Program-made: the position numbers and the translations under genes
Origin: Thermoanaerobaculia bacterium
Lineage (GTDB): Bacteria > Acidobacteriota > Thermoanaerobaculia > Multivoradales > UBA5704
Length of the DNA stretch: 64,000 bases
Direction of reading: 5' to 3'
Assembly: GCA_035544895.1 (NCBI GenBank)
Contig: DASZZM010000009.1
Coordinates: 3,797-67,796 of the forward strand
In this document: in pieces, positions 11,687-51,183 of the stretch
How the letters are laid out: each line of letters begins with the position of its first letter
How positions within the stretch are numbered: the stretch's first letter is position 1
Notes under the pieces: model-generated
Told to the model about the DNA's origin: nothing
Database searches by the model: none
What the model saw: only the letters and a program-made list of their open reading frames with translations

Positions 11687-11793
11687 CGGCGGTTAGCGGG
11701 CTAGCGTGCGGCGGGAAGGACCTGACTCTACAGCGACCGTCTGCGCAGGCTACGCTATCATGCAAGAACGCGCCCCGTGCGGAGGTCAGGACG

Positions 11794-12510: not shown

Positions 12511-12613
12511 TCCTTCCTGCCGCCATTCGCGCCCTTTTCTAGCGGAATGGGTTCACGACTCTCGTCGATCTCTGCCGCTGAAGGTCGAGCGGCGTGGCCC
12601 TGCCACCCTAGGC

Positions 12614-13259: not shown

Positions 13260-13346
13260 GACAGCATGATAGCACAAATGTGCAGGCATGCCTCGCTCAG
13301 GGCATCTCATGCGGCCCCCTAGGTCGCCTCGCGCGAAGGATCTTGT

Positions 13347-28488: not shown

Positions 28489-31400
28489 TCAGGCCAGCAT
28501 CAACATCCAGATGTGCCCTTCCTCGTTCTCGCGCACCAGGTAGAAGGAGCGGTCGCCTGGACCGATGCACACCCACTTGAACGCCGAGTTCGCCGGCGGC
28601 TCCAGCACCAGCCGGACCACCCCGCTGCGGCTGTCGATCAGGAAGAGCCTGCCTTCGGCCAGGTAGACGAGCCGGCTGCCATCGCGCAGCCACTCGGGCA
28701 GGTCGCCCTTGGCGAGCCGGGAGGTGCGGCCCGATGAGAACGAATAGATGACGACATCTGGGCCCACGGTGCCGGCCAGCGAGCGCCCGTCGGCAGACCA
28801 GGAGGTGGCGGTGAAGCGATCCTTCCCACCGCCCGCGACCGGCAGCTCGTCGGGGGTACGCTCGCCCGGCGGCTTGCCCAGGTCGACCAGGGCCGTGCCC
28901 ACGTCATCGCCATGCAGCTTGAGAAGGCAGGAGAGCCTCCGGCCGTCCGGCGACCAGAGCGGAAAGTAGGTGGGGCCCGGCCCGTCGCTGCGGGTGATCT
29001 GCTCGAGCCCGCTGCCGTCCGGACGGATGGTCCACAGCTCGTAGCGCCCGCTGCGGTTCGAGTAGAAGGCGAGGCGGGAGCCGTCGGGGGACCAGACCGG
29101 CTGGCGGTCCTTGTAGCGGTCGTTGGTGAGCTGCCGGAGGTCACTGCCGTCTTGGCGGACGACGAACAGGTCTTCCTGCGGATGGGTCGAATGGAAGGCG
29201 ACCCAGCTGCCGTCCGGCGACACGTCGCAAGAGCGCACGAAACGCGAGCCCTCGGTGATCGCCTGCGACCGCCCGACCACCTGGCCTGCAGCGGGATCGA
29301 AGGCGACCTTCTCGAGGTTCGATTTGCCGTCGCGGGTGGCATAGACGATCCGCCGACCGTCGCGCGAGATGCTGAGCAGACCGCTCCACTGCGCAGGAGT
29401 TGACAGCGGCTCGGGCTCTCCCAGGCTTCGGCCCGTGGCCTCGTCGATGCCCAGGCGCCACAGGTTCATCGCGCCGCTGCGGTCGCTGGCGAAGTAGAGG
29501 TACTTGCCGTCAGGAGCCCAGGCCGGGCTCCAGTTGAGGTACTGGTCGTCGACGAGGGCGACCGTTTCGGCGCGGTCTGCCGAAAGCGCCGGGCCTCTGT
29601 CCGGCGCCGGTGGGGACGGCAGATCCCTGCCCAGCAGGTGATCGGCAGACGTCCCCGACCTCGGGGGACCGGTGCGGTCGGTCTGAATTGTCGAGATGAC
29701 TCGGCGCGCGCTGCCCCTGGCGACTCCCCAGTAAGCGATCCGCCAGCCGTGCGGCGACCAGGCCGGCTGCACCGCGTCGTCGGTGGCGAGCTGGCGTCTG
29801 GCGCCGGTCGCGACGGTGACCCGCCAGATCCTGCTCTCCGAGGATCTGATTGCCGGGTTGTTGACGCCCTCGCTGGCGCACAGCACCTCCGTGCCGTCGG
29901 GGGACCAGGCCGGGTTGTAGCCGAAGTCGGTAAGCCGGCGCACCGACTCCCCGGTGGCGCCCATGACGAAGATGCCTCCGCCGTCGCGCTCTGAGCGGAA
30001 CGCGATCTGCTGACCGTCGGGGGAGAAGGCGGGGTGAGTGTCCGATGCCGGTGAGTCGCGGCTGAGGTCGATCTGATTTCCCCCGCCCGCGCGCTGCAGG
30101 TAGATGTGGCTCCTGCCGCCTGAGGCTTTGGTATAGAGGAAGAAGTTGCCGTCCGGCGAGATGGTGGGGAACGACTCGCTCCCGGCGAAGTCGGTCAGCT
30201 GGGTGAAGGTCGCCCGGACCGGCTTCACGGTGCCGCCCGGCGGGGTGGACTTGACCGGACCGGAGCGCAGAAGCAGGTAGACGGCGACGGCGACCGCCAC
30301 CGCAAAGCCGGCGGCGGCAAGGCGTCGAGGGAGCTTCCCGGTCACGATGGCCGGAGGAGCGCCGGTTCCGGCCTCGCCCTCCGGCCGGGTGCCGGAAGAA
30401 GGCAACGCCGGCCCTCCGGCGGCTTCCGAAGCCCGGCCCGCGGAACCCTTCGAAGCCCGGCTCCTGACACCTTCGTCTCCACGCCCCGTCTCGGCTTCCA
30501 GCTCGCCTGGCCCAGCCCCGGCCTCCGCCGCCCCGACTTCGGCCGCGCCAGGACGGCCCGGCATCGCCCCGCCCGGAAAGGTGGGACGGTCGCTCAGGGT
30601 CTCCTCGCCCGTGCTCGCGAAGGCGCCGCCGCCCCCTGTCCGTCCGATCCCGGGCAGCGCCGCGATCTCGCCGAAGGCCGCCGCCACGTCGCGGGCGGTC
30701 TGTGGCCGCCGGCGGGGGTCTTTCTCGAGCAGCCGGTCGACCAGGGCGCCGAGCTGGCGCGGCAGGCCGGGACGGATCGTCGCGAGGGGCGGCGGGTGAT
30801 GGGTGAGGATGCGGCGCAGCGACTCGACGTGGCTGCCGCCGCGAAAGGGCGACTGGCCGGTGAGGAGCTCGTAGAGCAGCACGCCGAGCGAGAAGAGGTC
30901 CGAGCGGGCGTCGGCCTCGCCGCCGCGGACCTGCTCGGGCGAGATGGTGTGGAAGGTGCCCAGGACGATGCCTTCGGCGGTCAGCGACTGCTCGGCGCTC
31001 TGGCTGTCCTGCTGCCAGACCGACTTGACGAGGCCGAAGTCGAGGATCTTGACCGCTCCCGAGGCGGTGACCATGACGTTTTCGCTCTTCAGGTCGCGGT
31101 GCACGAAGCCGGCGGCGTGCGCCGCCGCCAGGCCGAGGGCGATCTCGCGGGCGAAGCGCACGGCGACGGCTGGATCGAGCGGCCCGCGCGCGGCCACTTC
31201 GGCGAGGCTTTCGCCCTCGACGTATTCCATGACCAGGGCGTCGCTGGCGCCGCCGCCACCGGAGTCGCCGGCGGTCACGAGAGCGAAGATCTGCACGATG
31301 GCGGGGTGGTTGAGCCGCGCCGCGGCCCGCGCTTCGCGGCGGAAGCGCTGGCGCTGGACTTCCGAGAGCGGCCCGTCGTGGCGGATGCGCTTGATGGCGA

Positions 31401-31698
31401 CGAGCCTGCCGAGGCGGTCGTCGAAGGCCAGGTACACCTCTCCCATGCCGCCGCGCCCGAGCCCCCGCTCCACGCGATAGGCGCCGATTCGGTCGCCGGG
31501 CCGCAGGGCAGAAGGGGAGGGACGGGAGGCCGGGTGCAGGGGGGAGCCGGCCTGGTCGAGAGGGGCGTCCTCGGCAGAACCTTCGGCCGACCGGGCTAGA
31601 GGGTGAGGTCTCTCGGCCGGGGTCTGCTCGCCGGCCGCCTCTGGCGAGCGCGCGGATGAATCGCCCTGGTTGACAGAAGGTTTCGGCCCCGGATGCAT
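28489..31698 (-). CDS. Transmembrane Ser/Thr protein kinase with a periplasmic TolB-like (PD40/WD40-like) beta-propeller, cassette A
   Basis: Kinase motifs GRGGMGEVYLAFD, VAIKRI, HRDLKSENVMV, ILDFGL and SDLFSLGVLLYELLTG. A Gly/Ala/Pro-rich linker is followed by the TM helix LAAAGFAVAVAVAVYLLL and then many FSPDG/WSPDG PD40 repeats. Confidence 0.85.
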   Translation of the reverse strand: MHPGPKPSVNQGDSSARSPEAAGEQTPAERPHPLARSAEGSAEDAPLDQAGSPLHPASRPSPSALRPGDRIGAYRVERGLGRGGMGEVYLAFDDRLGRLVAIKRIRHDGPLSEVQRQRFRREARAAARLNHPAIVQIFALVTAGDSGGGGASDALVMEYVEGESLAEVAARGPLDPAVAVRFAREIALGLAAAHAAGFVHRDLKSENVMVTASGAVKILDFGLVKSVWQQDSQSAEQSLTAEGIVLGTFHTISPEQVRGGEADARSDLFSLGVLLYELLTGQSPFRGGSHVESLRRILTHHPPPLATIRPGLPRQLGALVDRLLEKDPRRRPQTARDVAAAFGEIAALPGIGRTGGGGAFASTGEETLSDRPTFPGGAMPGRPGAAEVGAAEAGAGPGELEAETGRGDEGVRSRASKGSAGRASEAAGGPALPSSGTRPEGEAGTGAPPAIVTGKLPRRLAAAGFAVAVAVAVYLLLRSGPVKSTPPGGTVKPVRATFTQLTDFAGSESFPTISPDGNFFLYTKASGGRSHIYLQRAGGGNQIDLSRDSPASDTHPAFSPDGQQIAFRSERDGGGIFVMGATGESVRRLTDFGYNPAWSPDGTEVLCASEGVNNPAIRSSESRIWRVTVATGARRQLATDDAVQPAWSPHGWRIAYWGVARGSARRVISTIQTDRTGPPRSGTSADHLLGRDLPSPPAPDRGPALSADRAETVALVDDQYLNWSPAWAPDGKYLYFASDRSGAMNLWRLGIDEATGRSLGEPEPLSTPAQWSGLLSISRDGRRIVYATRDGKSNLEKVAFDPAAGQVVGRSQAITEGSRFVRSCDVSPDGSWVAFHSTHPQEDLFVVRQDGSDLRQLTNDRYKDRQPVWSPDGSRLAFYSNRSGRYELWTIRPDGSGLEQITRSDGPGPTYFPLWSPDGRRLSCLLKLHGDDVGTALVDLGKPPGERTPDELPVAGGGKDRFTATSWSADGRSLAGTVGPDVVIYSFSSGRTSRLAKGDLPEWLRDGSRLVYLAEGRLFLIDSRSGVVRLVLEPPANSAFKWVCIGPGDRSFYLVRENEEGHIWMLMLA

Positions 31699-32244: not shown

Positions 32245-35200
32245 TCAGCCCATCGTGAGCATCCAGATGTGGCCCTCGCCACGCTTGTGTGCCAGGTAAA
32301 GGACGCGGTCGTCCGGGCCGACGCTTACCCAGGTGAAGGTCGAGCCCGGCGGCGCTGCCAGCACCGGCCGCGCCGCGCGGCTGCGGACATCCAGCAGAAA
32401 GACTTTCTCGCCATCCAGGTAGACGAGGCGGCGGCCATCGTGCAGCCACTGCGGAAGACTGCCGCTTTCCGTTACCTTGGAATAGCGCGCGGTCTGAAAG
32501 GAATAGAGCACCACGCCAGGCCGATCGGTATCGCCTGCCAGCCACTGGCCGTCGGGTGACCAGGAAGTGGCTTCGAAAACCCCGCCGGCGTAGGCGGGCA
32601 GCTCGGCGGAGACACGGTGGGCCAGCGGCCTGCCGAGGTCGATCAGCGCGGTCACCCGCAGGTTCAGCAGGCAGGCCAGCCGCCGGCCGTCCGGCGACCA
32701 CAGCGGGTTGACCGCGCTCCGGTCGTTGCTGCTCGTGAGCTCTTCCAACCGGCTGCCGTCGGGCCGGATGCTCCACAGCTCATAACGGCCGCTGCGGTTC
32801 GAGTAAAAGGCAACTCGCGATCCGTCCGGCGACCAGACCGGCCGGCGGTTCCTGTAGCTGTCGTTGGTGAGCTGTCTCAGCTCGCTGCCGTCGGAGCGGA
32901 CGATGAAGACGTTCTCTTGCGGCACCTGGGAGTGGAACGCGATCCAGCGCCCGTCGGGGGAAGCGTCGCAACTGCTTACCAAGCGAGAGCCGCCGATGAG
33001 GACCCGCGGCGCCTCGACGGCCAGACCGGCGATCGGGTCGAAGGCGGCTTTCTCCAGGCCCGACTTGTCGTTGCGAGTGGCATAAGCAATCCGCCGGCCG
33101 TCCCTGGAGATGCTCAGCAGCCCGCTCCACCGGGCAGGCGTCGACAGCGGTTCGGGGCGCCCCAGGGCCTGGCCCGTGGTCTCGTCGGCCGCTACCCGCC
33201 ACAGGTTCATCGAGCCGTTCCGGTCGCTGGCGTAATAGACATGTTTTCCGTCGGGGGCCCAGACCGGATTCCAGTTCAGATACTGGTCGTCGACGAGCGG
33301 CACGGCTTGTTCGCCGGCCGCCAGGCCGCGGCGGTCTGCCGGGATTGTCCACAGGACCCGGCGTCCCTTGCCCATCGGTATCCCCAGGTAGGCGATCCGC
33401 AGGCCGTGCGGCGACCAGCTCGGCTGCGCCGCATCGCCCCTGGTGACCAGTTGTCTCGCGCCGGTCGCTACCTTGACTCGCCAGAGCTGGCTGTCGGGCC
33501 CGCGCGTCTGAGGATCGGTCACCCTTTCGGTGGCGCAGAGCACTTCCGTGCCGTCGGGCGACCAGGCGGGGGCGTAAGCGAAATCGGTGAGGCGGCGCAC
33601 CGACTCACCGGTCGAGCCCATGAGGAAGATCCCGCCGCCGTCGCGCTCCGAACGGAAGGCGATCTGCTGGCCATCGGGGGAGAAAGCCGGCTCGGTGTCC
33701 GACGACGGCGAGTCGCGGCTGAGGTCGATCGCGTTGCCCCCGCCGACCCGCTGCAGAAAGATGTGGCTCTTGGCCCCCGTCGCCCTGGTGTAGAGAAAGA
33801 AGTTGCCGTCAGGCGAGAGGCTGGGGGAAGACTCTGTCCCCTCGAAGTCGGTGAGCTGACTGAAGGTCGCCCGGATCGGCGCCGCCGCGTCCGTCCTGGA
33901 GCCAGCCTTGCCCGTGCCGGAGTGGAGCAGCAGGTAGCCGGCCACGGCGGCCGCCAACGCGAGGATGGCAGCGGCGAGGCGGACAGGCAGCTTCCTGGTC
34001 GCCATGACCGGGGGAGCGCCGGTCCCGGCATCGCCCTCCGCCAGCCGGCCGGAGGAATGCCGTACCGGCGCGAGGGCGCCTCCCGAGGCCCGGCCCACGG
34101 CGTCTTGCGAGACCCGGCCCATGCCGCGATCGCCAGGCCACCCCGTCTCCTCCTCCGACTTCGCCGGCATGGCCTCTGCCTCGCCGTAGCCGCTCGCCAG
34201 CGCCCCACCGGGAAAGGTGGGCCGATCGCTCAGAGTTTCTTCGCCCGTGCTCGCGAACCCGCCGCCACCTCCCGGCCCTCCGAAACCGGGCAGAGCCGCG
34301 ATCTCGCCGAGGGCCGCCGCCACGTCGCGGGCGCTCTGCTGCCGTCGCCGCGGGTCTTTCTCGAGCAGCCGCTCGACCAGGGCGCCGAGCTCGCGCGGCA
34401 GGCCGGGACAGACCGTCGAAAGCGGCGGCGGCTGGTAGGTGAGGATGCGGCGCAGCGACTCGACGTGGCTGGCGCCGCGAAAGGGCGACTGGCCGGCCAG
34501 CAGCTCGTAGAGCAGGACGCCGAGCGAGAAGAGGTCCGAGCGGGCGTCGGCCTCGCCGCCGCGGACCTGCTCGGGCGAGATGGTGTGGTACGTGCCCAGC
34601 ACGATGCCCTCGGCGGTCAGCGACTGCTCGTCGCCCTGGCTGTCTCCTTGCCAGACCGACTTGACCAGGCCGAAGTCGAGGATCTTGACCGCCCTCGAGG
34701 CGGCGACCATGACGTTCTCGGTCTTGAGGTCGCGGTGCACGAAGCCGGCGGCGTGCGCCGCCGCCAGGCCGAGCGCGATCTCGCGGGCGAAGCGCACGGC
34801 GACGGCGGGATCGAGCGGCCCGCGCGCCACCATGTCGGCGAGGCTCTCGCCCTCGACGTATTCCATGATCAGGGCGTCGCCGCCGCCGCCGGAGTCGCCG
34901 GCGGTCACGAGATCGAAGATCTGCACGATGGCCGGGTGGTTGAGCCGCGCCGCCGCCCGCGCCTCGCGGCGGAAGCGCTGGCGCTGGACTTCCGAGAGCG
35001 GCCCGTCGTGGCGGATGCGCTTGATGGCGACCAACCTGCCGAGGCGGTCGTCGAAGGCCAGGTACACCTCTCCCATGCCGCCGCGCCCGAGCTGGCGCTC
35101 TACGCGATAGGCGCCGATCCGTTCGCCGGGCCGCAGAGGGGAAGGGGAGGGACGGGAGGCGTCGCCTCCTCTCCCTACATGCCCTGGTCCAGGGTCTGCC

Positions 35201-35262
35201 GAAGCTGGTCGCGAAGGAGGGCCAGCTCCGCTGCCTGCCGGTACCCGGGGTCCTTCTTGCAT
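32245..35262 (-). CDS. Transmembrane Ser/Thr kinase with TolB-like propeller, cassette B
   Basis: Same architecture as kinase A and strongly similar to it. The annotated ATG start at 35262 overlaps the 3' end of small-protein gene C by about 88 nt; no alternative in-frame start exists downstream of the overlap. Confidence 0.85.
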   Translation of the reverse strand: MQEGPRVPAGSGAGPPSRPASADPGPGHVGRGGDASRPSPSPLRPGERIGAYRVERQLGRGGMGEVYLAFDDRLGRLVAIKRIRHDGPLSEVQRQRFRREARAAARLNHPAIVQIFDLVTAGDSGGGGDALIMEYVEGESLADMVARGPLDPAVAVRFAREIALGLAAAHAAGFVHRDLKTENVMVAASRAVKILDFGLVKSVWQGDSQGDEQSLTAEGIVLGTYHTISPEQVRGGEADARSDLFSLGVLLYELLAGQSPFRGASHVESLRRILTYQPPPLSTVCPGLPRELGALVERLLEKDPRRRQQSARDVAAALGEIAALPGFGGPGGGGGFASTGEETLSDRPTFPGGALASGYGEAEAMPAKSEEETGWPGDRGMGRVSQDAVGRASGGALAPVRHSSGRLAEGDAGTGAPPVMATRKLPVRLAAAILALAAAVAGYLLLHSGTGKAGSRTDAAAPIRATFSQLTDFEGTESSPSLSPDGNFFLYTRATGAKSHIFLQRVGGGNAIDLSRDSPSSDTEPAFSPDGQQIAFRSERDGGGIFLMGSTGESVRRLTDFAYAPAWSPDGTEVLCATERVTDPQTRGPDSQLWRVKVATGARQLVTRGDAAQPSWSPHGLRIAYLGIPMGKGRRVLWTIPADRRGLAAGEQAVPLVDDQYLNWNPVWAPDGKHVYYASDRNGSMNLWRVAADETTGQALGRPEPLSTPARWSGLLSISRDGRRIAYATRNDKSGLEKAAFDPIAGLAVEAPRVLIGGSRLVSSCDASPDGRWIAFHSQVPQENVFIVRSDGSELRQLTNDSYRNRRPVWSPDGSRVAFYSNRSGRYELWSIRPDGSRLEELTSSNDRSAVNPLWSPDGRRLACLLNLRVTALIDLGRPLAHRVSAELPAYAGGVFEATSWSPDGQWLAGDTDRPGVVLYSFQTARYSKVTESGSLPQWLHDGRRLVYLDGEKVFLLDVRSRAARPVLAAPPGSTFTWVSVGPDDRVLYLAHKRGEGHIWMLTMG

Positions 35263-35604: not shown

Positions 35605-38600
35605 TCAGCTCACCGCCAGCATCCAGATATGGCCTTCGCCGCTCTCGCGCACCAGGTAGACGGCACGGTCGTCCGGGGCGATGCTCAGCCCGAAGAAGGA
35701 CGAATTGGCCGCGGGCTCCAGCATCAGCCGCGTCTGCCGGGTGCGGACGTCCACCAGGAAGAGCTTGCCCGCGTCGAGGTAGAGGAGGTGGCGGCCGTCG
35801 TGCAGCCAGTGCGGATTGAAGCCCCGCTCGGTCAGCCGGGAGCACCGGTGGCTGCTGAACGAGTAGAGCCCGATGCCCGGGAGGTTCGTCTGGTCTGGCC
35901 GCATGAATGTGCCCGCCAGCCAGCGCCCGTCGGACGACCAGGCGCTGGCCTCGAAGATTCCTTCGCAGCCGCCGGCCACGGGCAGCGCGGCGGGCACGCG
36001 CTCGGCCGGCGGCCGGGCGAGGTCGATCAGCGCCGTGCCACGCGCATCCAGAAAAACGCCGGCAAGCCAACGGCCGTCCGGTGACCACGACGGAACGACG
36101 ATGCCGGGGCCTCGCGTCCGGGTGATCTGCTCGAGCCTGCTGCCGTCGGGGAGAATGGTCCACAGCTCGTACCTGCCGCTGCGGTTCGAGTAGAAGGCAA
36201 GGCGCGAGCCGTCCGGCGACCAGACCGGGACGCGGTCATTGAATCGGTCGTTGGTGAGCTGCCGCAGCTCGCCGCCGTCCAGGCGGATGACGAAGAGGTC
36301 TTCCTGCGGGACCAGGGAGTGGAAGGCGATCCGCCGGCCGTCGGGCGAGACCTCGCAGGAGCGCACGTGACGCGAGCCCTGAAGAAGCGCCCGCGACGTT
36401 CCCGCGGGCCGGCCGGCCACCGGATCGAAAGCGATCGTTTCCAGGGCCGACCTGCTGTCGCGGCTCTCGTAGACGATCCGCCGGCCGTCCCGGGCGACGC
36501 TCGGCAGCCCGCTCCACCGGGACGGCGTGGTCAGCGCCTCGGGCTCCCCCAGCGGCTTGCCCGTGGCCTCGTCGAGAGCCACCCGCCAGAGATTCATCGA
36601 GCCGCCGCGGTCGCTGGCGAAGTAAAGGTGAGCGCCGTCCGGCGCCCACGCCGGGCTCCAGTTGAGGTGCTGGTCGTCGACGACCGGCAAGGCCTCGCCC
36701 GTGCTCACCGGGGTGGCGCGGTCGGCGGGGATCGTCGACACCACGCGGTGCGCCGTGCCGGCGGCAAGGCCCCAGTACGCGATGCGCCGGCCGTGCGGCG
36801 ACCAGCTCGGCTGCAGACCTTCGCCTTCGAACACCAGGCGCTTGGAACCGCTCGCCACGCTCACCCGCCAGAGCCGGCTGGCGGAAGTCCTGCTGGCTGG
36901 ATCGTCCGTCGAGGCGGTCGCGCACAGCACTTCGCTGCCGTCGGGCGACCAGGCCGGGTTGTAGCCGAAGTCGGTGAGGCGCCGAACCGATTCGCCGGTG
37001 GCGCCCATGACGAAGATGCCTCCACCGGTGCGCTCCGAGCGGAAAGCGATCTGCTGGCCGTCAGGGGAGAAGGCCGGCTGCGTGTCGGATGCCGGCGAGT
37101 CGCCAGTGAGATCGATCGGGTTGCCGCCGCCCACGCGCTGCAGGAAAATGTGGGTCGCGCCCCGGGTCGCCCTGCCGTAGAGGAAGAAAGCGCCGTCCGG
37201 CGAGATGCTGGGGAAAGACTCTGTCCCCTCGAAGTCGGTGAGCTGGGTAAAGCTAGCGCCGACCGCCGCCCCTGCCGCCGGAAGGGCCGGCCTGTTCGCG
37301 CCGGGGCGCAGCAGGAGATAGCCGCCCATGGCAGCGAGCACCGCGAGCGCCGCGAGCGCCGCAAGCACCGCGGCGCCGAGCCGCAGACGCAGCCTTCCTG
37401 CCCCAGCGTCCCGGGCGCCCGCACCCGGGCCGGTGCGGGCGTCGGTCGCGGCAAGGCCGGGGGCATGGCCTTCTCCCGGCAGCCCGGCGCCCTCCCTTCC
37501 TTCCTGCTCCTCCGCGGCCCCCGGCGCGGCCGGCAGCGCCGCGCCGGGAAAGGTGGGGCGGTCGCTCAGCGTCTGCTCGGCCGCGCTCGCGAAGCCGCCG
37601 GCCCCGCCGTCTCCGTCTCCGATACCGGGCAGGGCGGCGATCTCGCCGAGCGCCGCCGCCACGTCGCGGGCGGTCTGCGGCCGCCGCCGCGGGTCCTTCT
37701 CGAGCAGCCGCTCGACCAGCGCGCCGAGCTCGCGCGGCAGCCCGGGAAGGATCGTCGAGAGCGGCGGCGGGTGGAGAGTGAGGATGCGCCGCAGCGACTC
37801 GACGTGGCTGCCGCCGCGGAAGGGCGACTGGCCGCTGACGAGCTCGTAGAGCAGCACGCCGAGCGAGAAGAGGTCCGAGCGGGCGTCGGCCTCGCTGCCC
37901 CGCACCTGCTCGGGCGAGATGGTGTGGAAGGTGCCCAGCACGACGCCCTCGGCGGTCAGCGACTGCTCCGCGTTCTGGCTCTCCTCCAGCCAGACCGACT
38001 TGACCAGGCCGAAATCGAGGATCTTGACCCGCCCCGAGGCGGTGACCATGACGTTCTCGCTCTTCAGGTCGCGGTGTACGAAGCCGGCGGCGTGCGCCGC
38101 CGCCAGGCCGAGCGCGATCTCGCGGGCGAAGCGCACGGCGACGGCCGGATCGAGGGGCCCGCGCGCCACCATCTCGGCGAGGCTTTCGCCCTCGACGTAC
38201 TCCATGACCAGGGCGTCGCCGGCGCCGCTGGCGTCGACCGTGAGCAGATCGAAGATCTGCACGATGGCCGGGTGGTTGAGCTGCGCCGCCGCCCGCGCCT
38301 CGCGGCGGAAGCGCTGGCGCTGGACGTCCGAGAGCGGCCCGTCGTGGCGGATGCGCTTGATGGCCACGAGCCTGCCCAGGCGGTCGTCGAAGGCGAGGTA
38401 CACCTCGCCCATGCCGCCGCGTCCGAGCCGCCGCTCCACGCGATAGGCGCCGATCCGTTCGCCGGACCGCAGGTCTGAGCTGGAAGAACGGGGGGTGGGG
38501 CGGCGGGGCGCCTCTTCCGCGGCGGATCCGCCGGCCGAGCCCGCGGGAGACTCAGCCTCGGCCGAGGTCTGCTCGCCGGACTCTTCGGGAGCGCGCGCGG

Positions 38601-38646
38601 ATGAGTCGCCTTGGTGGCTGGAAGGTTTCGGCCCAGGCTTCATCAT
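35605..38646 (-). CDS. Transmembrane Ser/Thr kinase with TolB-like propeller, cassette C
   Basis: True start MMKPGPKPSSHQGDSSARAPEESGEQ matches the kinase A N-terminus (MHPGPKPSVNQGDSSARSPEAAGEQ). AGGAG RBS. The ORF-track 1465-aa version is a read-through fusion with an Arg/Pro-rich junk N-terminus. The start lies 33 nt after the stop of the TIR-NACHT gene. Confidence 0.85.
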   Translation of the reverse strand: MMKPGPKPSSHQGDSSARAPEESGEQTSAEAESPAGSAGGSAAEEAPRRPTPRSSSSDLRSGERIGAYRVERRLGRGGMGEVYLAFDDRLGRLVAIKRIRHDGPLSDVQRQRFRREARAAAQLNHPAIVQIFDLLTVDASGAGDALVMEYVEGESLAEMVARGPLDPAVAVRFAREIALGLAAAHAAGFVHRDLKSENVMVTASGRVKILDFGLVKSVWLEESQNAEQSLTAEGVVLGTFHTISPEQVRGSEADARSDLFSLGVLLYELVSGQSPFRGGSHVESLRRILTLHPPPLSTILPGLPRELGALVERLLEKDPRRRPQTARDVAAALGEIAALPGIGDGDGGAGGFASAAEQTLSDRPTFPGAALPAAPGAAEEQEGREGAGLPGEGHAPGLAATDARTGPGAGARDAGAGRLRLRLGAAVLAALAALAVLAAMGGYLLLRPGANRPALPAAGAAVGASFTQLTDFEGTESFPSISPDGAFFLYGRATRGATHIFLQRVGGGNPIDLTGDSPASDTQPAFSPDGQQIAFRSERTGGGIFVMGATGESVRRLTDFGYNPAWSPDGSEVLCATASTDDPASRTSASRLWRVSVASGSKRLVFEGEGLQPSWSPHGRRIAYWGLAAGTAHRVVSTIPADRATPVSTGEALPVVDDQHLNWSPAWAPDGAHLYFASDRGGSMNLWRVALDEATGKPLGEPEALTTPSRWSGLPSVARDGRRIVYESRDSRSALETIAFDPVAGRPAGTSRALLQGSRHVRSCEVSPDGRRIAFHSLVPQEDLFVIRLDGGELRQLTNDRFNDRVPVWSPDGSRLAFYSNRSGRYELWTILPDGSRLEQITRTRGPGIVVPSWSPDGRWLAGVFLDARGTALIDLARPPAERVPAALPVAGGCEGIFEASAWSSDGRWLAGTFMRPDQTNLPGIGLYSFSSHRCSRLTERGFNPHWLHDGRHLLYLDAGKLFLVDVRTRQTRLMLEPAANSSFFGLSIAPDDRAVYLVRESGEGHIWMLAVS

Positions 38647-38681
38647 CGCGCTCCTAGAAAGAAACTCGCTCGCAGTGTCGT

Positions 38682-41600
38682 TCACGTCCCGAGGCCGCCC
38701 ACCGGCGGCAGAACAACGCGAAAGCCCGGACTCCCCAGCTCGAACGACGGGGGCCTGGAGTACCGGTAGGCCGCGCGCGCGGCATCCGCGTCGTTCCAGT
38801 AACCGCCGCCGCGCAGGACGCGGGCGCCGCCGGGGGAGGCTGGCGCGCCGACTTCGCCGACCTCGTCGAGCGCATCGGCGTCGACGGTCGAAGAATCGAA
38901 GATCACTCCCTTCTCGGTGCTCGTCGAGGGACTCAGCGTCCATTCCCAGACGTTGCCATGTACGTCGTAGAGGCCCCAGGGGTTGGCGGGCTTCTCGCCG
39001 ACCCGGTGGGTGCGGCGGTCGGAGTTGGCCTCGTACCAGCCGGCGCGGGCGAGCGCCCCCTCCCGGTCGCCGCTCCAGTAGAGGCTCTTCGTGCCCGCCC
39101 GGCAGACGTACTCCCACTCCTCCTCGGCCGGCAGGCGCGCGCCGCGCGCCCAGGCGAAGACCGACGACAACCAGCGGCAGAAGGAGACCGCCTCGTACCA
39201 GGTGACCCCGGCCGCCGGGTGGTGGGCCAGCTCCTCCCGCGCCACCTCTTCCCAGTCCGCGAACCGGCGCTCGGGATCGAAGGCCGCGTACTGGGCGCGG
39301 GTTACCGGAACCGCGGCGCAGCGGAACGGCCGCGCGATCGTCACCTGGTGACGAGGGTGCTCGTCCCGGCTTCCCTCGCCCTTCAGGCTCCCCATCCAGA
39401 ACCACCCGGCGGGGATCTCTCGCCAGAGGGGCACGCGGCCGTCCACCGAGGTCTCGATCCCGGCGAACAGCTCTTCGGCCGCCGCGGGCGGCCGGATGTG
39501 ATCGTAGAGGCGGGCACGGAGCGCGGCCCCTTCCCGGGCGTGATCGGGGAACTGGCGGGCGACCTCCCGGACCGCCTGGTCGAGGAAGAAGAGGTCGTTG
39601 CCGTTGCGGGTCCGCCGGCGGAGCTGATCGAGGAGGGCGAGCACCCGCCGGGGTTCTCCGACCAGCTCGGGCAGGCGACCGTAGACCTCCCGCCTCTCCT
39701 CCCACTCCTCGCTGAGCACGAGGATCTCCCGCACGGTGTCGTCGCGAAGGGTCTGCGCGGTGGCCAGGGCGCGCAGGCCGAGGGGGCGGTTCTCCTGCAC
39801 CAGGGCGCGCACCAGCTCGTCCGGGGCCTCGACCTGGCCGACCAGCAGGGAGAAGGGCTCCGCCCAGCGGCTCTGGTCCTGCTCCGCGGTGATCGTCCGG
39901 GCGCGGGCGAGGACGGCCGCCCGCCCCTTGTCGCCGCGGTACTCCTCGGCCAGGCGCTCGGCGGCCAGGGCCTCGCGGAAGGTGCGGTGCCAGAAGCGCC
40001 AATCGGCATCGGGACCATCGTGAGGGCCGAGGATGCCGGTGCGCTCGGCGAGCTCGTCGAAGAACGGCCGCAGCCCCTGCCGCCAGCGCGGCACCCGCTC
40101 CAGGGCCCGGCAGACCTCCTCCGCCTCGGGCTGGTACAACCGCTCCTCGAGACGGCTCCGCGGCTCGGCATCCCGGTTGTCCACCGTCATCGAGAACGCG
40201 AGGTGGCGAAGGGCCTTGCGGACCGCCGCCGGACGCTCGATGGGGAGCCCCTCATGGAACCTGTGCTTGCCTTCGAGGAGGAGCTCGAAGACCTGATCGT
40301 AGAGCCGGGTACGGTTGCGGTCGGGGGCGGTTCCGCGCTCGAAGAGGAGGGCCATCAGGGTAAGGTAGAGGGGGTTGCCGGCGAGCTCGGACAGCCCCGG
40401 CCCGTCGAGGGAGGCGAGCGCTTCGGCGGCCCGCGCCTCGTCCGGCCTGCCCGTGGCGCGGCCGAACCAGCGGGCGAGGAATTCGCGGCGGCGCTCGCCA
40501 TTGAAGGGAAGCAGGACGAGCTCGCGGAAGGCGCTCCCCGGCCGGCGATAGCCGATGGGCCGGCTGGCCACCACCAGCGGCGAAGCCGGCCAGGTGGCGG
40601 CGAGGTCGCGCAGCAGCTCTTCGGCCTGCTCATGCTCGTCGCGGGGAACCTCGTCGAGACCGTCCAAGAGCACGAGCAGGCGCCCCTGCTGCCCCTCGCG
40701 GTCGAGGACCGCCTTCAACCCCGGGGCCGGATGGCCGGCGAGCTCCAGGCGGCGGACGACGCGGTCGAGCAGCGGCCGGCCCTCGTGCAGCAGACGAGGC
40801 AGCGATTCGTAAAGAGGCACCCAGGGGCGGTTCTCCTGCCGCGCCAGGCTGGCCGACAGGTGGCGCAGGAGGAGCGTCTTGCCGGCGCCCGGATCGCCCA
40901 GCACCACCCAGCGGCCGGTGACCCAAGGGTGGGCGGCGCGGTCCAGACCGAGCACCTCGCGCAGGCCGAGCGAACGGGCCAGGCGCTCGGACTTGGGCTC
41001 CGGAGCGACCGCCTGCAGGGTCTCGGGCTGGAGCTCCAACTGGACGTAGACCCGGTCGAGCAGCTCCCCTTCGGCCTGGCGCTGGAAGTAGGGGGCCAGC
41101 CGCTCGTGGTCGGCGGCCACCTGGCGCAGCCAGACTCCGAGCAGGCCGCGGCCGGGGCCCTGCTGGCGCAGAGACCGCAGCTCCTCGCGCAGGGGTCCGA
41201 GGGCGGCGACCCGGTCCGGCTCGTCCTCCCCGAGGTTCTCCTCCAAGACTTCGACGATGCGCAGGGCGGCGGCGACCGGGTCCTCGGCGGCGGTTGCCCA
41301 GACCAGGGCGGCCGAAGCGGCGCATGCCCAGGAGGGCTGGCCGTCGAGCTTCTCGGGCGCGAGCCCGAGGCACGAGGCGATGGCGCGCCGGAGGACTTTG
41401 CTGCCGAGGAGCGGGGTCAGCCAGCCGACGAGCCGGGTGCGCAGGGCGGCAGGCAGCCCGGAATCGGGCGAGGCCGGGATCTCGATGCCGGCAGGCAGGG
41501 CGGGGAGGTTGCGGCGGTCGCTCGAGCCGAGGATACCGGAGAGCAGCTCCCGGAGCCCGCGGCGGTACTTCTCCTCGCCGGCCTCCCGGAAATCGACGAA

Positions 41601-41951
41601 CTGGATCTGGTCGAAAAAGGGGGGCAGTGGGGTCTCGACCAGGTGGACGAGGTGGAGCTTTCCCTCGTGCCAGTCCTGGCGGGTGGCGAGGAAGCTCTGC
41701 CACTCGTCGGAGACTCGCGGGGACGCGAGCGCCTCGGGGGTGATGACGAGGATCAGCTGGCCGGCCCGGTCGAGACCCGCCTGGAGCTGCCCGATCCAGG
41801 AGCGGCCGCTCGCCAGATCGGTTTCGTCGAGGAAGACCTTCCCCGGCCGGTTCGCGGCGGCAAGGCCGGCCTCGAGGCCGCGGTGGAGGACCTCCACCCA
41901 GGCCTGATAGCGGTGGGCATAGCTCAGGAACGCCGTGTAGTGCTCGGGCAT
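38682..41951 (-). CDS. TIR-NACHT-FGE-sulfatase (DUF323) STAND NTPase; bacterial NLR-like protein
   Basis: N-terminal TIR ([15 protein letters not shown]...[37 protein letters not shown]...SDEW). NACHT with Walker A GDPGAGKT and Walker [13 protein letters not shown]-terminal FGE-sulfatase domain ([23 protein letters not shown]..., [45 protein letters not shown]). The ORF-track start at 42050 adds 33 aa. Confidence 0.8.
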
Positions 41952-42017
41952 ATGAAGGAATGATAGGGCAGCGGCGGGGGTGCGCACGAGCTCATGGAAC
42001 CCGGCTCCCGATGACGA

Positions 42018-42033
42018 GCAATGCCGCCGCCAG
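42018..42033 (-). promoter_or_regulatory. Candidate sigma54 (-24/-12) promoter TGGCGGCGGCATTGCT upstream of the TIR-NACHT gene
   Basis: The reverse complement of gcaatgccgccgcca gives TGGC-N8-TTGC with consensus GG/GC spacing. It sits about 55 nt upstream of the 41951 start, in the spacer after the sigma54 activator gene. This is a pattern match only. Confidence 0.3.
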
Positions 42034-42115
42034 CAGGGCCGCGGCCCCACGCACGTGGTTCCAGGCCACAGCCAAGAGCCGAGAGAAGTCTCAGCGTCCC
42101 CATCGCGCTCCTACA

Positions 42116-44053
<1,938 letters not shown>

Positions 44054-44805: not shown

Positions 44806-47800
44806 TCAGCTCGGCGAGCTCAGGGTCAGCATCCAGACATGCCCTTCGTCGCTCCCGCGCACCAGGGAGAGGAAGCGGTCCGCGGGGCCGATGCTCAGCC
44901 AGTAGAACGCCGAGCTCGCGGGAGGCTCCAGCACCGGCTGGACCTCGCGAGTGCGGGCGTCGAGCAGAAAGAGCTTGCCTTCGTCGAGATAGAGAAGACG
45001 GCTGCTGTCGTGCAGCCAGTGAGGGAAGGAGCCGTGGCCGGTCAACCGCGAGTAGCGGCCGGACTGGAAAGAATAGACCACGACGTCGCCGTCGATGCTC
45101 CCCGCCAGCCAACGCCCGTCGGGCGACCACGAGGTGGCATTGAAACCTTCATTCGTGCCGCTGGCGGGCGGCAGCTCGGTGGACACGCGCCCCGCCGGGT
45201 GCCTGGCAAGGTCGACCAGCGCGGTGCCGCGCAGGTTGAGGAAGCAGGCCAGCTTCCGCCCGTCCGGCGACCAGATCGGGTTGAAGGTGGGGCCCGGACC
45301 GTCCGCACTCGTGATCTGCTCGAGCCCGCTGCCGTCGGGGCGGATGATCCACAGCTCGTAGCGGCCGCTGCGGTTCGAGTAGAACGCGATGCGGGAGCCG
45401 TCCGGCGACCAGACAGGCCCGCGGTCCTTGTAGCGGTCGTTGGTGAGCTGCCGCAGGCCGCTGCCGTCCGGGTGGACGATGAAGAGGTCTTCCTGAGGGA
45501 AGGTCGAGTTGAAAGCGATCCAGCGGCCGTCCGGCGAAGCGTCGCAGAAGCGCACGAAGCGCGAGCCCTGGGTGACCGGCTGGAGCGGCCCCATCACCCG
45601 GCCGGCGGTGGGATCGAAGGCGACCCTCTCGATGTTCGATTTGCCGTCGCGGGTGGCATAGGCGATCCGCCGGCCGTCCCGCGAGATGCTGAGCAACCCG
45701 CTCCATGGCGAGGGCGCCGACAGCGGCTCGGGCCCTCCAAGCGGCTTGCCGGTCGCCTCGTCGATCGCCACCCGCCACAGGTTCATGGCCCCGCTGCGGT
45801 CGCTGGCGAAATACACGTACTTGCCGTCCGGCGCCCAGATCGGGCTCCAGTTGAGGTACTGGTCGTCGACGAGCGGCACCGCCTCGCGGCTGCCCACCGG
45901 GCTGGTGCGGTCCGCCGGAATCGTCCACAGCACCCGGTGCCCGGCGCCGCCTGACGTCCCGGGGAGGCCCCAGTAGGCGATGCGCCGGCCGTGCGGCGAC
46001 CAGCTCGGCTGCACCGCGTCGGCCTCGAGCACCAGACGTCTGGCGCCGGTCGCGACGTCGATCCGCCAGATCCGGCTGTCGGATGTCCTGACGGCGGGGT
46101 CGGCCACCCCTTCGGTGGCGCACAGCACCTCCGTCGCGTCCGGCGACCAGGCCGGGTTGTAGCAGTTGAAGTCGGTCAGGCGCCGCACCGACTCGCCGGT
46201 GGCGCCCATGAGAAAGATGCCGCCGCCGTCGCGCTCCGAGCGGAAGGCGATCTGCTGGCCGTCGGACGAGAAGGCCGGCTGCGTATCCGATGCCGGGGAG
46301 TCGCGGCTGAGATCGATGGAGTTGCCGCCGCCGGCGCGCTGCAGGTAGATGTGGCTCCTGCCGCCCGCGGTCTTGCAGTAGGCGAAGTAATTGCCGTCCG
46401 GCGAGAGGCTGGGGAAGGTCTCGCTCCCCGGCAAGTCGGTGAGCTGGGCGAAGGTCGCCCGGACCGGCGCCCCCGCACCCGCCGCCGCGGCCGCCCTGCC
46501 GGCGCCGGAGCGCCAGAGCAGGTAGCCGGCGCCGGCGGCGAGCGCCAGCAGGGCCGCGGCGGCAACCCATAGGGGGGGTCTTCCGGGGTTCTTGCCTTCG
46601 CCAGGGCCAAGGCCGGCGCTGGGCCTCGCGGCGACGGGCTCCTGCTGGCCAGGTCCCTGCTGGATGCCGGGGGTCCATGCGCCGGCGGCCGTACCGGGAG
46701 TCCATGCGCCAGGTCCTTGCTGGGCGCTGGGAGGCCATGCGCCGGGTGTCTGCTGCTTGCCGGAAGCCCGCGCACCGGGTTCCTGTCGCGCGCCGGCACT
46801 CCGGGGCGAAGTTTCCTGCTGCCCGCCAGGGCTCCCGGCGGCGGTGGGCGGTTGGCGGTGGGGGCTCAAGGCGCCAGGCCGTTGCAGGGCAGGACGCTCG
46901 GCCTCCTCCTCCGCACCCAAGCTCTCCAGCGCCTCTTCTACGCTCGGCTGCTCGACTCCCGCGAAGGTGGGCATGTCGCTCACCGTCCGCTCGGCCGCGC
47001 TCTCCGAGGCGGCGGCCAGGCCGGTCGAGGCGGCGATCTCTTCGAGGGCCTGGGCCACGTCCAGGGCGCTGCGCGGCCGCCGCCGGGGGTCCTTCTCGAG
47101 CAGGCGCTCGACCAGCGCGGCGAGCTCGCGCGGCAGGCCGGGGCAGGTCATGTCGAGCGGCGGGGGCCGGTGGGTGAGCACCCGGCGCAGCGAGTCCACG
47201 TGGCTGCTGCCGCGGAACGGCGACTGGCTGGTGGTCAGCTCGTAGAGCAGCACCCCGAGCGAGAACAGGTCGGAGCGGGCATCGGCGTGCCCGCCCCTGA
47301 CTTGCTCGGGCGAGATGGTATGGAAGGTGCCCATCACCAGGCCCTCGGCGGTCAGCGAGTCCTCCTTGCCCTCCTCCCGCCAGAACGACTTCACCAGCCC
47401 GAAGTCGAGGATCTTGACCCGCCCCGCGGGGGTGACCATGACGTTTTCGGTCTTGAGGTCGCGGTGCACGAAGCCGGCGGCATGCGCCGCTTGGAGGCCG
47501 AGCGCGATCTCGCGGCCCAGGCGCACGGCCAGGGCCGGGTCGAGCGGCCCTTGCGCCTCCACCATCTCCGCCAGGGTCCTGCCCTCGACGTACTCGAGGA
47601 CCAGGGTGTCGCCGCCGTCGTCCTCGACGAGGTCGAAGACCTGCACCAGGGCCGGATGGTTGAGCCGCGCCGCCGCGCGCGCTTCGCGGCGGAAGCGCTG
47701 CCGCTGCACGTCCGACAGCGGCCCGTCGTGGCGGATGCGCTTGATCGCCACCAGCCTTCCCAGCCGGTCGTCGAAGGCAAGGAAGACCTCCCCCATGCCG

Positions 47801-48099
47801 CCGCGCCCGAGGCGCCGCTCCACGCGATAAGCGCCGATCCGCTCGCCGGGCCGCAGGGAGCGGCTGGAGCCGCGGGCGGCCCCCTCTTCGTCGCTGTCTT
47901 CGGCGGGAGGAGGAGAGTCCGGCCGCTCGGCAGGCGACTCGTCCCGCGCCAATGCTTCGGCTGACTGGGGAGGGAAGTCTCCTCGGCTGGAAGGGGCGCT
48001 CGGCCTGGTAGGCTTGCGAGTCATCGAGCATGGCAAGGATAGCAGAAGAGCCGGATGCCAAGATCGCCGCGCGGCATCGTGGCCGTTGGCGTAGTGCAT
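44806..48099 (-). CDS. Transmembrane Ser/Thr kinase with TolB-like propeller, cassette D
   Basis: Same kinase, TM and PD40 architecture. The linker is long and Pro/Gly/Gln-rich. The start is uncertain (48099, or internal ATG about 48024, MTRKPTRP). Confidence 0.8.
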   Translation of the reverse strand: MHYANGHDAARRSWHPALLLSLPCSMTRKPTRPSAPSSRGDFPPQSAEALARDESPAERPDSPPPAEDSDEEGAARGSSRSLRPGERIGAYRVERRLGRGGMGEVFLAFDDRLGRLVAIKRIRHDGPLSDVQRQRFRREARAAARLNHPALVQVFDLVEDDGGDTLVLEYVEGRTLAEMVEAQGPLDPALAVRLGREIALGLQAAHAAGFVHRDLKTENVMVTPAGRVKILDFGLVKSFWREEGKEDSLTAEGLVMGTFHTISPEQVRGGHADARSDLFSLGVLLYELTTSQSPFRGSSHVDSLRRVLTHRPPPLDMTCPGLPRELAALVERLLEKDPRRRPRSALDVAQALEEIAASTGLAAASESAAERTVSDMPTFAGVEQPSVEEALESLGAEEEAERPALQRPGALSPHRQPPTAAGSPGGQQETSPRSAGARQEPGARASGKQQTPGAWPPSAQQGPGAWTPGTAAGAWTPGIQQGPGQQEPVAARPSAGLGPGEGKNPGRPPLWVAAAALLALAAGAGYLLWRSGAGRAAAAAGAGAPVRATFAQLTDLPGSETFPSLSPDGNYFAYCKTAGGRSHIYLQRAGGGNSIDLSRDSPASDTQPAFSSDGQQIAFRSERDGGGIFLMGATGESVRRLTDFNCYNPAWSPDATEVLCATEGVADPAVRTSDSRIWRIDVATGARRLVLEADAVQPSWSPHGRRIAYWGLPGTSGGAGHRVLWTIPADRTSPVGSREAVPLVDDQYLNWSPIWAPDGKYVYFASDRSGAMNLWRVAIDEATGKPLGGPEPLSAPSPWSGLLSISRDGRRIAYATRDGKSNIERVAFDPTAGRVMGPLQPVTQGSRFVRFCDASPDGRWIAFNSTFPQEDLFIVHPDGSGLRQLTNDRYKDRGPVWSPDGSRIAFYSNRSGRYELWIIRPDGSGLEQITSADGPGPTFNPIWSPDGRKLACFLNLRGTALVDLARHPAGRVSTELPPASGTNEGFNATSWSPDGRWLAGSIDGDVVVYSFQSGRYSRLTGHGSFPHWLHDSSRLLYLDEGKLFLLDARTREVQPVLEPPASSAFYWLSIGPADRFLSLVRGSDEGHVWMLTLSSPS

Positions 48100-48166: not shown

Positions 48167-48222
48167 GGATAGGGACGCTCTATCTCAACAGATAGGCCGG
48201 CTGGCCGCCGCGGCGGCCAGCA
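48167..48222 (+). promoter_or_regulatory. Overlapping GATAG/CTATC palindromes (ggatagggacgctctatctcaacagatagg) followed by a 22-bp perfect palindrome gctggccgccgcggcggccagc, upstream of the He_PIG gene
   Basis: The motif block recurs upstream of the paralog at 50948-50976. It is a likely operator for a shared regulator. Confidence 0.3.
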
Positions 48223-48400
48223 TTCTCCCGCCTCATGCGTAACCTCTCAGGTCAAAGGGTTTAGAGCCGCGCCCCCAGAAGGCTCCGAGGTGGCACCGGA
48301 CCTGCTCTATACGGCAGACGAATCGATCACTCGAGAAAGCAGCGAGGCGCAGATGAGCTCGATGCTCAACAGTTTCTCTTACAGGAAAACGGAGGATACG

Positions 48401-50976: not shown

Positions 50977-51183
50977 CAGGCCGGCCGCCGCGGCCATCGC
51001 GCCCGCTCCAGTCTAGCTCCTAACAATCTCATTACAAAAGAGTTATAGCCGAGTCGCGGACCTGCTCCCGGAGTGGCACCGGACCTGCTCTATACCCAAG
51101 CAGAATCGATCACTCGAGAAAGCCGCGAGGCACGGATGAGCTCGATGCCCAACAGTTTCTCTGACGAGGATGTGGAGGATACG

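Follow-up and report, generated by a model that had tools for sequence, protein, structure and literature searches.

A TIR-NACHT-FGS gene within a receptor-kinase array of a Thermoanaerobaculia bacterium is predicted to encode an NLR-like immune receptor

Does an NLR-like gene that lies among receptor-kinase genes work together with these kinases, or does it act on its own? The question is raised by a 64,000-nucleotide stretch of DNA from a Thermoanaerobaculia bacterium (assembly GCA_035544895.1, contig DASZZM010000009.1, positions 3,797 to 67,796), hereafter referred to as the window. At 38682..41951 on the minus strand, the window harbors an intact gene for a protein of 1089 residues with a TIR domain, a NACHT domain, and an FGE-sulfatase (FGS) domain, which we call TNF, a shorthand for TIR-NACHT-FGS gene. 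An initial annotation of this DNA had left two readings side by side, namely, a defense gene that has inserted into a signaling array or a part of the kinase/small-protein system that surrounds it. The present analysis leans to the first of these. We consider it likely that TNF encodes an autonomous, cytoplasmic, single-protein NLR-like immune receptor of the effector-STAND NTPase-FGS sensor class.

Domains and motifs of the TNF protein

The window is about 70% G+C, so that long spurious open reading frames (ORFs) are common, and the real frames were picked by third-position GC (GC3). The TNF ORF has its longest start at 42050 (38682..42050, minus strand), in a frame that is open from 42110; the ATG at 41951 gives the protein of 1089 residues and the same N terminus as in 19 aligned orthologues. 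The protein is colinear with these 19 orthologues over its whole length, and the GC3 of the gene (0.90) is like that of the adjoining genes. TNF, which lies on the minus strand as had been supposed, is one uninterrupted ORF with no frameshift or internal stop, excluding the disrupted pseudogene that the initial annotation had taken into account. The three domains named there all score above their Pfam cutoffs: TIR_2 (PF13676) at residues 8 to 135 (5.3e-16, 59.7 bits against a cutoff of 28), NACHT (PF05729) at residues 349 to 497 (7.1e-14, 52.4 bits against 26.7), and FGE-sulfatase (PF03781) at residues 845 to 1080 (1.5e-40, 139.9 bits against 23.3). An AlphaFold2 model of the protein has a mean predicted local distance difference test score (pLDDT) of 77.7 and models the TIR, NACHT, and helical parts well. 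Unlike the kinases of the window, the protein has no transmembrane helix. Overall, TNF encodes a complete and intact cytoplasmic NLR-like protein.

The conservation of motifs was read from an alignment of 20 orthologues with 48 to 93% identity to the window protein. In the N-terminal TIR effector domain (residues 8 to 135, 41547..41930, minus strand), Glu83 (codon 41703..41705) is invariant in 20 of the 20 sequences. A profile search aligned the stretch S77-P-R-V-x-D-E83 with S-E-W-C-H-Y-E of TLR1, and the TIR region matched TLR1, TLR6, and TLR2, as well as the NAD+ hydrolases AbTIR, SARM1/tir-1, and Cat1. Glu83 stands at the start of the alpha-C helix, which spans residues 80 to 90 in the AlphaFold2 model, as expected of a catalytic (NADase) TIR domain. 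In NADase TIRs, this position (SxWCxxE) is occupied by the catalytic Glu, and by analogy the TIR domain of TNF might cleave NAD+ by means of Glu83. A helical linker (residues 136 to 348, 40908..41546, minus strand), with modeled helices at residues 168 to 299, joins the TIR domain to the NACHT domain. In tblastn matches, relatives with other effectors, the Mrr type included, diverge upstream of approximately residue 270.

The NACHT domain (residues 349 to 497, 40461..40907, minus strand) has a Walker A motif, GDPGAGKT (40875..40898), that is invariant in the 20 orthologues, and a Walker B motif, LLDGLDEV, of which DGLDE lies at 40650..40664. The invariant residues of the domain are G352, D353, P354, G355, G357, and K358, followed by D430, G431, L432, D433, and E434 and by R464, and the TSRP sensor-1 motif, (T/A)SRPIGYR, is invariant or nearly so. 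In the NACHT-associated helical and winged-helix region (residues 498 to 830, 39462..40460, minus strand), a histidine motif at 39957..39995 contains the invariant residues W654, H655, R656, R659, and E660; this matches the winged-helix histidine motif of animal NLRs, as known from NLR structures. A Walker B motif of the form hhhhD[GAS]hDE, the TSRP motif, and the winged-helix histidine are reportedly features of the NACHT clade, as said to have been set out by Koonin and Aravind in 2000 and to be seen in NLR structures. The TNF protein has all three, together with a Walker A motif of the form GxxGxGK[ST] and the Pfam score, and falls among the NACHT-clade STAND NTPases. A Foldseek search against the PDB gave NLRP3, NLRC4, NOD2, and NLRP9 as the best matches (about 550 aligned columns, E values of 7e-11 to 3e-9), with RPP1, the TIR domain of TLR1, and EgtB ranked lower. 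The likeness to NLRP3, NLRC4, and NOD2 (E values of 7e-11 to 1e-9) is one of fold over the central ~550 residues, at a sequence identity of just 13 to 17%.

The C-terminal FGE-sulfatase/FGS domain (residues 845 to 1080, 38712..39419, minus strand) has a C-type-lectin fold. In a PDB sequence search, TvpA of Treponema denticola was the closest solved match (2y3c, 2.7e-16); TvpA is a lectin-fold variable protein that a diversity-generating retroelement (DGR) diversifies. PvdO, SUMF2, and the human formylglycine-generating enzyme (FGE; 1.8e-8) rank behind TvpA, and the match to human FGE spans only residues 86 to 182 of the domain query, short of the catalytic C-terminal segment. FGE has two catalytic cysteines (C336 and C341 in the human enzyme) in a C-terminal RGGS...C....C segment; in the alignment, none of the 20 sequences has a cysteine at either position, so that the residues that mark FGE (SUMF1) are missing. 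The NCBIfam models of PvdO, EgtB, and SenA reach 40 to 58 bits against cutoffs of 360 to 500. Since the FGE cysteines are absent and TvpA is the best solved match, the domain is, on sequence grounds, a predicted binding or sensor module and not a formylglycine enzyme. This agrees with the sensor role given to it in the initial annotation and with the literature, which classes FGS as an antigen-receptor type.

Divergence within the protein is greatest in the last 84 residues, where the mean pairwise identity is 35% against 43 to 66% in the other segments. In a 93%-identical relative, whose locus we call L084, the same segment is 65% identical and the other segments are 87 to 98% identical; the differences in the FGS region are loop indels, and the stretch equivalent to the variable region is nearly identical. 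A role of the domain as a DGR target was considered and rejected, as blastn gave no template-like repeat of the last 719 nt of TNF anywhere in the window. Among the annotated ORFs of the window, there is also no reverse transcriptase (RVT) or Avd domain. These results give no sign of local DGR activity at TNF, and a template elsewhere in the genome is conceivable.

Effector swapping and the predicted mode of action

A protein search returned 266 homologues of TNF at E values of at most 1e-10, mostly in Thermoanaerobaculia, and those with an organism name come from metagenome-assembled genomes of Thermoanaerobaculia or Acidobacteriota. The activator gene product next to TNF is 100% identical to a protein of a Thermoanaerobaculia metagenome-assembled genome at NCBI, which identifies the source of the window. 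Many of the homologues are full length (about 1080 residues), with 46 to 93% identity. Other relatives keep the NACHT-FGS body (46 to 61% identity) and carry Mrr_cat (a nuclease), CHAT, or HTH in place of the TIR domain. Conflict systems typically show such swapping of effectors on a conserved body of switch and sensor. At 23 to 38% identity, NACHT-FGE proteins are also present in Chloroflexota, Chlorobiaceae, Planctomycetota, and further phyla, and in cyanobacterial relatives, the match is confined to the NACHT part. At two loci, L085 (~9700-10000) and L091 (10001-10880), which hold orthologues of 77% and 78% identity, the gene calls start late and give 986 and 794 residues; in L085, TIR-coding sequence lies upstream of the called start, out of frame. 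Frameshifts within the TIR-coding part, or errors in its assembly, are possible reasons for these late calls.

The mode of action that we propose is modeled on plant TIR-NLRs, SARM1, and bacterial STAND defense proteins. In plant TIR-NLRs such as RPP1 and ROQ1 and in SARM1, oligomerization gathers TIR domains into an NADase. In TNF, the NACHT domain would be closed with ADP at rest, as suggested by the conserved winged-helix histidine motif. An invader-derived molecule, or an invader-induced change of a host molecule, would bind the lectin-fold FGS domain, and nucleotide exchange would then lead the NACHT modules to oligomerize. The N-terminal TIR domains would thereby be brought together into active NAD+-cleaving sites using Glu83, and NAD+ depletion, or a nucleotide signal made by the TIR domains, could stop the growth of the infected cell or kill it (abortive infection). 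The domains, the conservation of motifs, the effector swapping, the variable genomic context, and a conserved -10 box (see below) were observed directly; ligand binding, oligomerization, NADase activity, and a defense phenotype would be expected of TNF by analogy.

To place the gene in its genomic context, 42 loci with TNF orthologues of at least 45% identity were drawn from genomes and metagenomes and queried with the kinases, the activator, and the four small proteins that surround TNF in the window. Defense-type contexts were seen, with a HepT/MNT pair, a HEPN-DUF499 gene, and a DUF1156 methyltransferase at one orthologous locus and a ParE toxin-antitoxin pair beside an orthologue. No accessory gene was common to more than a few loci within 4 kb of the TNF orthologues. 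Further contexts of this type were a DGR and an nSTAND1-WD40 gene. The DGR (RVT_1 and bAvd), in L002 (1-4521, in the 12.2-Mb genome OZ375331.1), adjoins a NACHT-FGE-sulfatase paralogue at a distance of 5.5 kb from the TNF orthologue. In L004, an nSTAND1-WD40 gene of 1041 residues (6061-9186, plus strand) lies directly upstream of a 60% orthologue on the same strand, placing two STAND receptors next to each other.

Several observations weigh against an immune receptor. No TNF relatives were found on viral contigs (IMG/VR), and plasmid-borne relatives are only distant, with at most 31% identity. PADLOC v2 gave no family match, the best scores being those of mad8 (2e-4 over 42 residues) and Aga_TIR (2.6e-3), and TNF does not match its models of Avs (AVAST) or other defense STAND families. 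NCBIfam likewise gave no family match; EruA (NF058535), a NACHT antiphage protein, reached 46 bits against a cutoff of 1000. Several orthologues lie amid housekeeping or biosynthetic genes (heme synthesis, polysaccharide synthesis, nonribosomal peptide synthetase, and S-adenosylmethionine [SAM] cycle) and not in defense islands. In GC content and codon usage, TNF does not stand out from the window, and the comparison with its neighbors proposed in the initial annotation does not flag the gene as foreign. No mobile-element genes (integrase or transposase) occur in the annotated ORFs, and no tRNA or Rfam match flanks TNF. Moreover, the conservation of the protein, with a mean column identity of 60%, is unusually high for a defense sensor, and the model of the FGS domain is poor in its C-terminal half (pLDDT of <50, poor over residues 950 to 1089). 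STAND-linked lectin-fold sensors were also experimentally uncharacterized as of 2024 (PMC10907252).

An NLR-like switch with a role outside defense might account for part of these observations. In such a role, the protein would be a conserved sensor by which an endogenous or environmental ligand triggers TIR-mediated dormancy or programmed cell death in Thermoanaerobaculia, or it would act as a "guard" of a host process. The identity of 52 to 78% across the class, with the mean column identity given above and a stable length of about 1080 residues, is consistent with this possibility, as are the housekeeping neighbors of many orthologues (heme synthesis, SAM cycle, and polysaccharide synthesis), the native composition of TNF, and the lack of a local DGR or template repeat. 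However, TIR, Mrr, CHAT, and HTH effectors are swapped on a conserved body, which is a signature of conflict systems, and defense-type neighbors occur in several loci. In addition, variability is highest at the ligand-binding end of the FGS domain, and almost every lineage has the gene at a different genomic position. We therefore regard a role outside defense as rather unlikely, and an immune receptor remains the reading that we prefer.

Place of TNF in the kinase array

As described in the initial annotation, TNF shares its strand with four cassettes of kinase and small-protein genes and with an FHA-sigma54 activator. Upstream of TNF lie the activator (FHA-GAF-Sigma54_activat-HTH_8, 42116..44053) and a Pkinase-PD40 gene, kinase A (44806..48099); downstream lie a second Pkinase-PD40 gene, kinase C (35605..38646), and two more at 32245..35262 and 28489..31698, all on the minus strand and assigned by Pfam. 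A Cys-rich ORF of about 100 residues follows each Pkinase-PD40 gene. The kinases of the window have one transmembrane helix each, indicating that their PD40 propellers are extracytoplasmic.

Kinase, small-protein, and activator neighbors were found in only 1 of the 42 orthologous loci, L084, which comes from the same lineage and has the order seen in the window (kinase, small ORF, activator, TNF, kinase, and small ORF). PD40 kinases, small ORFs, and activator are all missing from about 20 independent loci in which the flank on one side measures at least 5 kb. Among these loci is that of a 78% orthologue, which lies among MacB/FtsX genes and has flanks of 10 kb on both sides. The colocalization of orthologues with PD40 kinases, which the initial annotation had put forward as a check on its idea, is thus confined to a near-identical lineage. 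A kinase gene lies near TNF in three orthologous loci, and the architectures that could be read are cytoplasmic TIR-Pkinase-FGE-sulfatase or TIR/SEFIR-Pkinase fusions. The first of these, of 826 residues (L095, 9138-11618, minus strand), adjoins a TNF orthologue and has the same effector and sensor; the second (L112, 5835-7655, minus strand) also adjoins an orthologue and has the same effector. These TIR-kinase fusions are sister receptors with a kinase as the central module instead of NACHT, and not PD40 receptor kinases.

Next to the start codon, a -10-like hexamer, TATCAT, lies 8 nt upstream of the ATG (41960..41965, minus strand) and is kept across orthologues. A TAnnnT box (TATCAT, TATGAT, TATAAT, TACAAT, and similar variants) is present 6 to 13 nt before the ATG in all 20 loci with a placeable start, two of which are duplicates of each other. 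The upstream DNA is otherwise unalignable, and the background of the TAnnnT hexamer in comparable segments of the window is 1.4%. The box was seen only by comparison of orthologues and not by a scan for the sigma70 consensus, and no Shine-Dalgarno sequence precedes the TNF start in any of the 20 loci. Since the box occurs in 20 of 20 loci and a Shine-Dalgarno sequence is missing, TNF is probably transcribed from a promoter of its own into a leaderless or near-leaderless mRNA, which makes the gene look self-contained. Control of TNF by sigma54 was considered and rejected, as the consensus scan gave 15 matches in the window against 18.8 expected, and the match upstream of TNF, TGGCGGCGGCATTGCT, located 66 to 81 nt before the ATG, has 2 mismatches and is not found in L084.

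At the other end of the gene, the TNF stop codon (TGA, 38684..38682) is separated from the ATG of kinase C (38644..38646, beginning at 38646) by 35 nt, and not by the 33 nt initially reported; spacer and ATG together occupy 38644..38681. The AGGAG ribosome-binding site is present, as annotated, at 38655..38651. The corresponding junction of L084 reads ATGA, with the stop codon of TNF and the start codon of the kinase overlapping. A sigma70 and terminator consensus scan of 38500-42300 found nothing. Since no terminator-like site follows TNF, transcription probably reads through from TNF into kinase C. The cotranscription of the two genes, initially held to be almost certain, is therefore plausible in the form of read-through, given the 35-nt spacer with its Shine-Dalgarno sequence, the lack of a terminator, and the overlap in L084.

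Compared at the DNA level, the window and L084 form a mosaic. They are 94 to 95.5% identical up to the activator stop and have no homology over most of the 5' spacer of TNF. From 21 nt before the TNF ATG, through TNF, to the first ~1.1 kb of kinase C, the identity is 90.8%; it is about 76% in the PD40 parts and later cassettes and 89 to 97% in the Mla genes. The 5' spacer, from the activator stop to the TNF start, measures 164 nt in the window (41952..42115, minus strand), and all but its last ~21 nt are nonhomologous to the 71-nt spacer of L084. Directly after the activator stop, a 13-nt sequence, TAGGAGCGCGATG (42101..42113, minus strand), is an exact copy of the Shine-Dalgarno sequence and start of kinase C (38644..38656). 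Its 11-mer core, GGAGCGCGATG, occurs exactly on this strand only at 42101 and 38644, with about 0.1 occurrences expected in the whole window as estimated from base composition, and the copy is absent from the corresponding place in L084. This copy may be the footprint of an insertion at an ancestral activator-kinase junction and serves as a lead. The ATG within it (42103..42101) opens an ORF of about 60 codons (42050-42103, minus strand) in another frame across the TNF start, which is probably not a gene. A search for the empty site gave no TNF-free activator-kinase junction. It returned three activator homologues (62 to 70% identity) whose contexts are unrelated, and two of these homologues have Pkinase-TPR kinases as neighbors; contigs with small-protein relatives are either short or the same contig as L084.

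Because array neighbors occur only in a near-identical lineage and every orthologue checked has its own -10-like box, the place of TNF in the kinase array is most likely incidental and due to a lineage-specific insertion, as judged from the compared sequences. Since the composition of TNF is ordinary and there is no sign of a tRNA, an RNA family, an integrase, or a transposase, the insertion is not recent, or TNF came from a related genome. The "composite sensor-effector locus" working with the kinases that the initial annotation had envisaged is not supported. The kinase link, which made the gene appear special, is confined to one lineage.

A working role of TNF in the system of kinases, small Cys-rich proteins, and FHA-sigma54 activator, for example, as an executioner or checkpoint under phosphorylation control or through coregulation with the receptor kinases, appears distinctly unlikely. 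Such a role would fit the shared strand, the short gap to kinase C with its Shine-Dalgarno sequence and no terminator, and the stop/ATG overlap in the 93% relative, which implies translational coupling. The arrangement is also kept in two strains, the TIR-Pkinase-FGE neighbors elsewhere suggest that kinase and STAND switches share effectors and sensors, and a sigma54-like match precedes the gene. Nevertheless, 41 of the 42 orthologous loci, including that of the 78% orthologue with its 10-kb flanks, lack PD40 kinases, small ORFs, and activator, and the kinases encoded in the vicinity of other orthologues belong to cytoplasmic TIR-kinase fusions and are not PD40 receptor kinases. TNF also has its own conserved -10 box, the sigma54-like match has the mismatches described above in a window with fewer such matches than expected and is missing from L084, and the kinases are single-span proteins with a periplasmic propeller, whereas TNF is cytoplasmic. 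Very unlikely, in turn, is that TNF is wired into a hypervariable array of receptor kinases and Cys-rich peptides, with its own promoter driving the downstream PD40 kinase, translationally coupled to TNF in the sister strain, and with the kinases tuning or licensing TNF, directly or via the FHA-sigma54 activator. If true, this would be a bacterial counterpart of plant surface receptor kinases that cooperate with intracellular TIR-NLRs.

The cassettes themselves (27881-48099, minus strand) are hypervariable between the window and L084. The identity is 93% for TNF, 98.6% for the activator, and 89% for kinase A, whereas it is only 65 to 73% for the downstream kinases, which diverge chiefly in the PD40 part, and only 36 to 38% for the small Cys-rich proteins; three cassettes lie downstream of TNF in the window and two in L084. 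In the small proteins, the N terminus, M[AI]F[KR][YH]K[DE]L, is conserved, the Cys-rich middle is variable, and an LA.L.EQLRQ helix lies at the C terminus. They match only 24 representatives at E values of at most 1e-3 among 1.84 billion proteins and have no Pfam or NCBIfam match. Upstream of the array, two identical sigma54-type promoter matches, TGGCACCGGACCTGCT, with 1 mismatch to the consensus, are located at 48291-48306 and 51074-51089 (plus strand), each at the 5' end of a He_PIG/PKD Ig-like gene. The two Ig-like genes (48173-50794 and 51049-53055, respectively) are divergent from kinase A. These genes are plausible targets of the FHA-GAF-sigma54 activator.

The window also encodes a second, unrelated TIR protein of 390 residues (11338-12510, plus strand), with a C-terminal TIR domain of the CAP12/Pycsar type (PF10137, 2.7e-33), which corresponds to the PADLOC candidate PDC-S35 (1e-46). 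It lies in a stretch of lower GC (0.615 to 0.655) and is adjoined by a PIN-domain ORF (13347-13952, minus strand). The stretch 11338-13952 may be a small defense islet, about 26 kb from TNF.

Relation to known systems

That TNF is an enzyme of the SUMF1/EgtB/PvdO family, as suggested by the name [quoted passage not shown] of homologues in NCBI and JGI records and by the strong FGE-sulfatase Pfam match, is hardly credible, since the likeness lies in the fold family (PF03781), whereas the catalytic-position cysteines are absent from all 20 sequences, the PvdO, EgtB, and SenA scores of 40 to 58 bits are far under their cutoffs of 360 to 500, the best solved relative, TvpA, is nonenzymatic, the domain is fused to TIR and NACHT, and the annotated parts of the window have no sulfatase gene. 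Database names such as "formylglycine-generating enzyme" and "SUMF1/EgtB/PvdO family nonheme iron enzyme" are misleading for TNF-type proteins.

Read as an autonomous immune receptor, TNF can be compared with several known systems. With plant TIR-NLRs, SARM1, NLRP3, and NLRC4, the likeness is one of mechanism by analogy and of shared module ancestry, not of orthology. The sensor of plant TIR-NLRs and animal NLRs consists of leucine-rich repeats, whereas that of TNF is the lectin-fold FGS domain.

Closer likenesses are found among bacterial proteins. In a preprint on bacterial NACHT (bNACHT) antiphage proteins, which are related to NLRs (Kibby et al., bioRxiv 10.1101/2022.07.19.500537), an effector-NACHT-FGS layout is described, with FGS as one of two "antigen receptor-type" sensors and TIR as a listed effector. 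TNF has the same three-part layout and intact NACHT motifs; it differs in that no tested bNACHT family model matches it. According to Kaur, Burroughs, Iyer, and Aravind (eLife 2021, PMC8195603; eLife 2020, PMC7159879), STAND-FGS proteins are widespread and their N-terminal effectors, including TIR, are interchangeable, and the FGS domain has been proposed to bind invader molecules. The relatives of TNF show the same effector swapping. However, these counter-invader systems often come with a DGR or with effector-associated domains and separate effector genes, whereas the window of TNF has no DGR, template repeat, or adaptor partner. The papers also emphasize cyanobacteria, whereas the host of TNF belongs to the Thermoanaerobaculia.

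DGR-diversified targets of the NACHT/nSTAND1-CLec type, with an FGE subtype and in some cases an N-terminal TIR domain, have also been described (Proc Natl Acad Sci 2024, PMC10907252). TNF resembles them in its NACHT domain and C-terminal lectin fold, and the orthologous locus L002 has a DGR by a NACHT-FGE paralogue; the difference is that TNF has neither a reverse transcriptase nor Avd in its surroundings, as seen in the annotated ORFs of the window, and no template repeat. A census of defense STANDs (Nature 2026, PMC13581612) comprises 589 clades and includes FGE-sulfatase-like sensors.

Overall, the TIR-STAND-FGS architecture is already described, and TNF is a further member of it, from an under-sampled class. 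The gene gives a clean and intact example of an NLR-like receptor with a lectin-fold (FGS) sensor rather than repeats, in a class that has been catalogued computationally. Together with its relatives in the Thermoanaerobaculia clade, it forms a tractable comparative set with natural effector swaps, a fast-evolving sensor tip, and a conserved promoter at the start codon.

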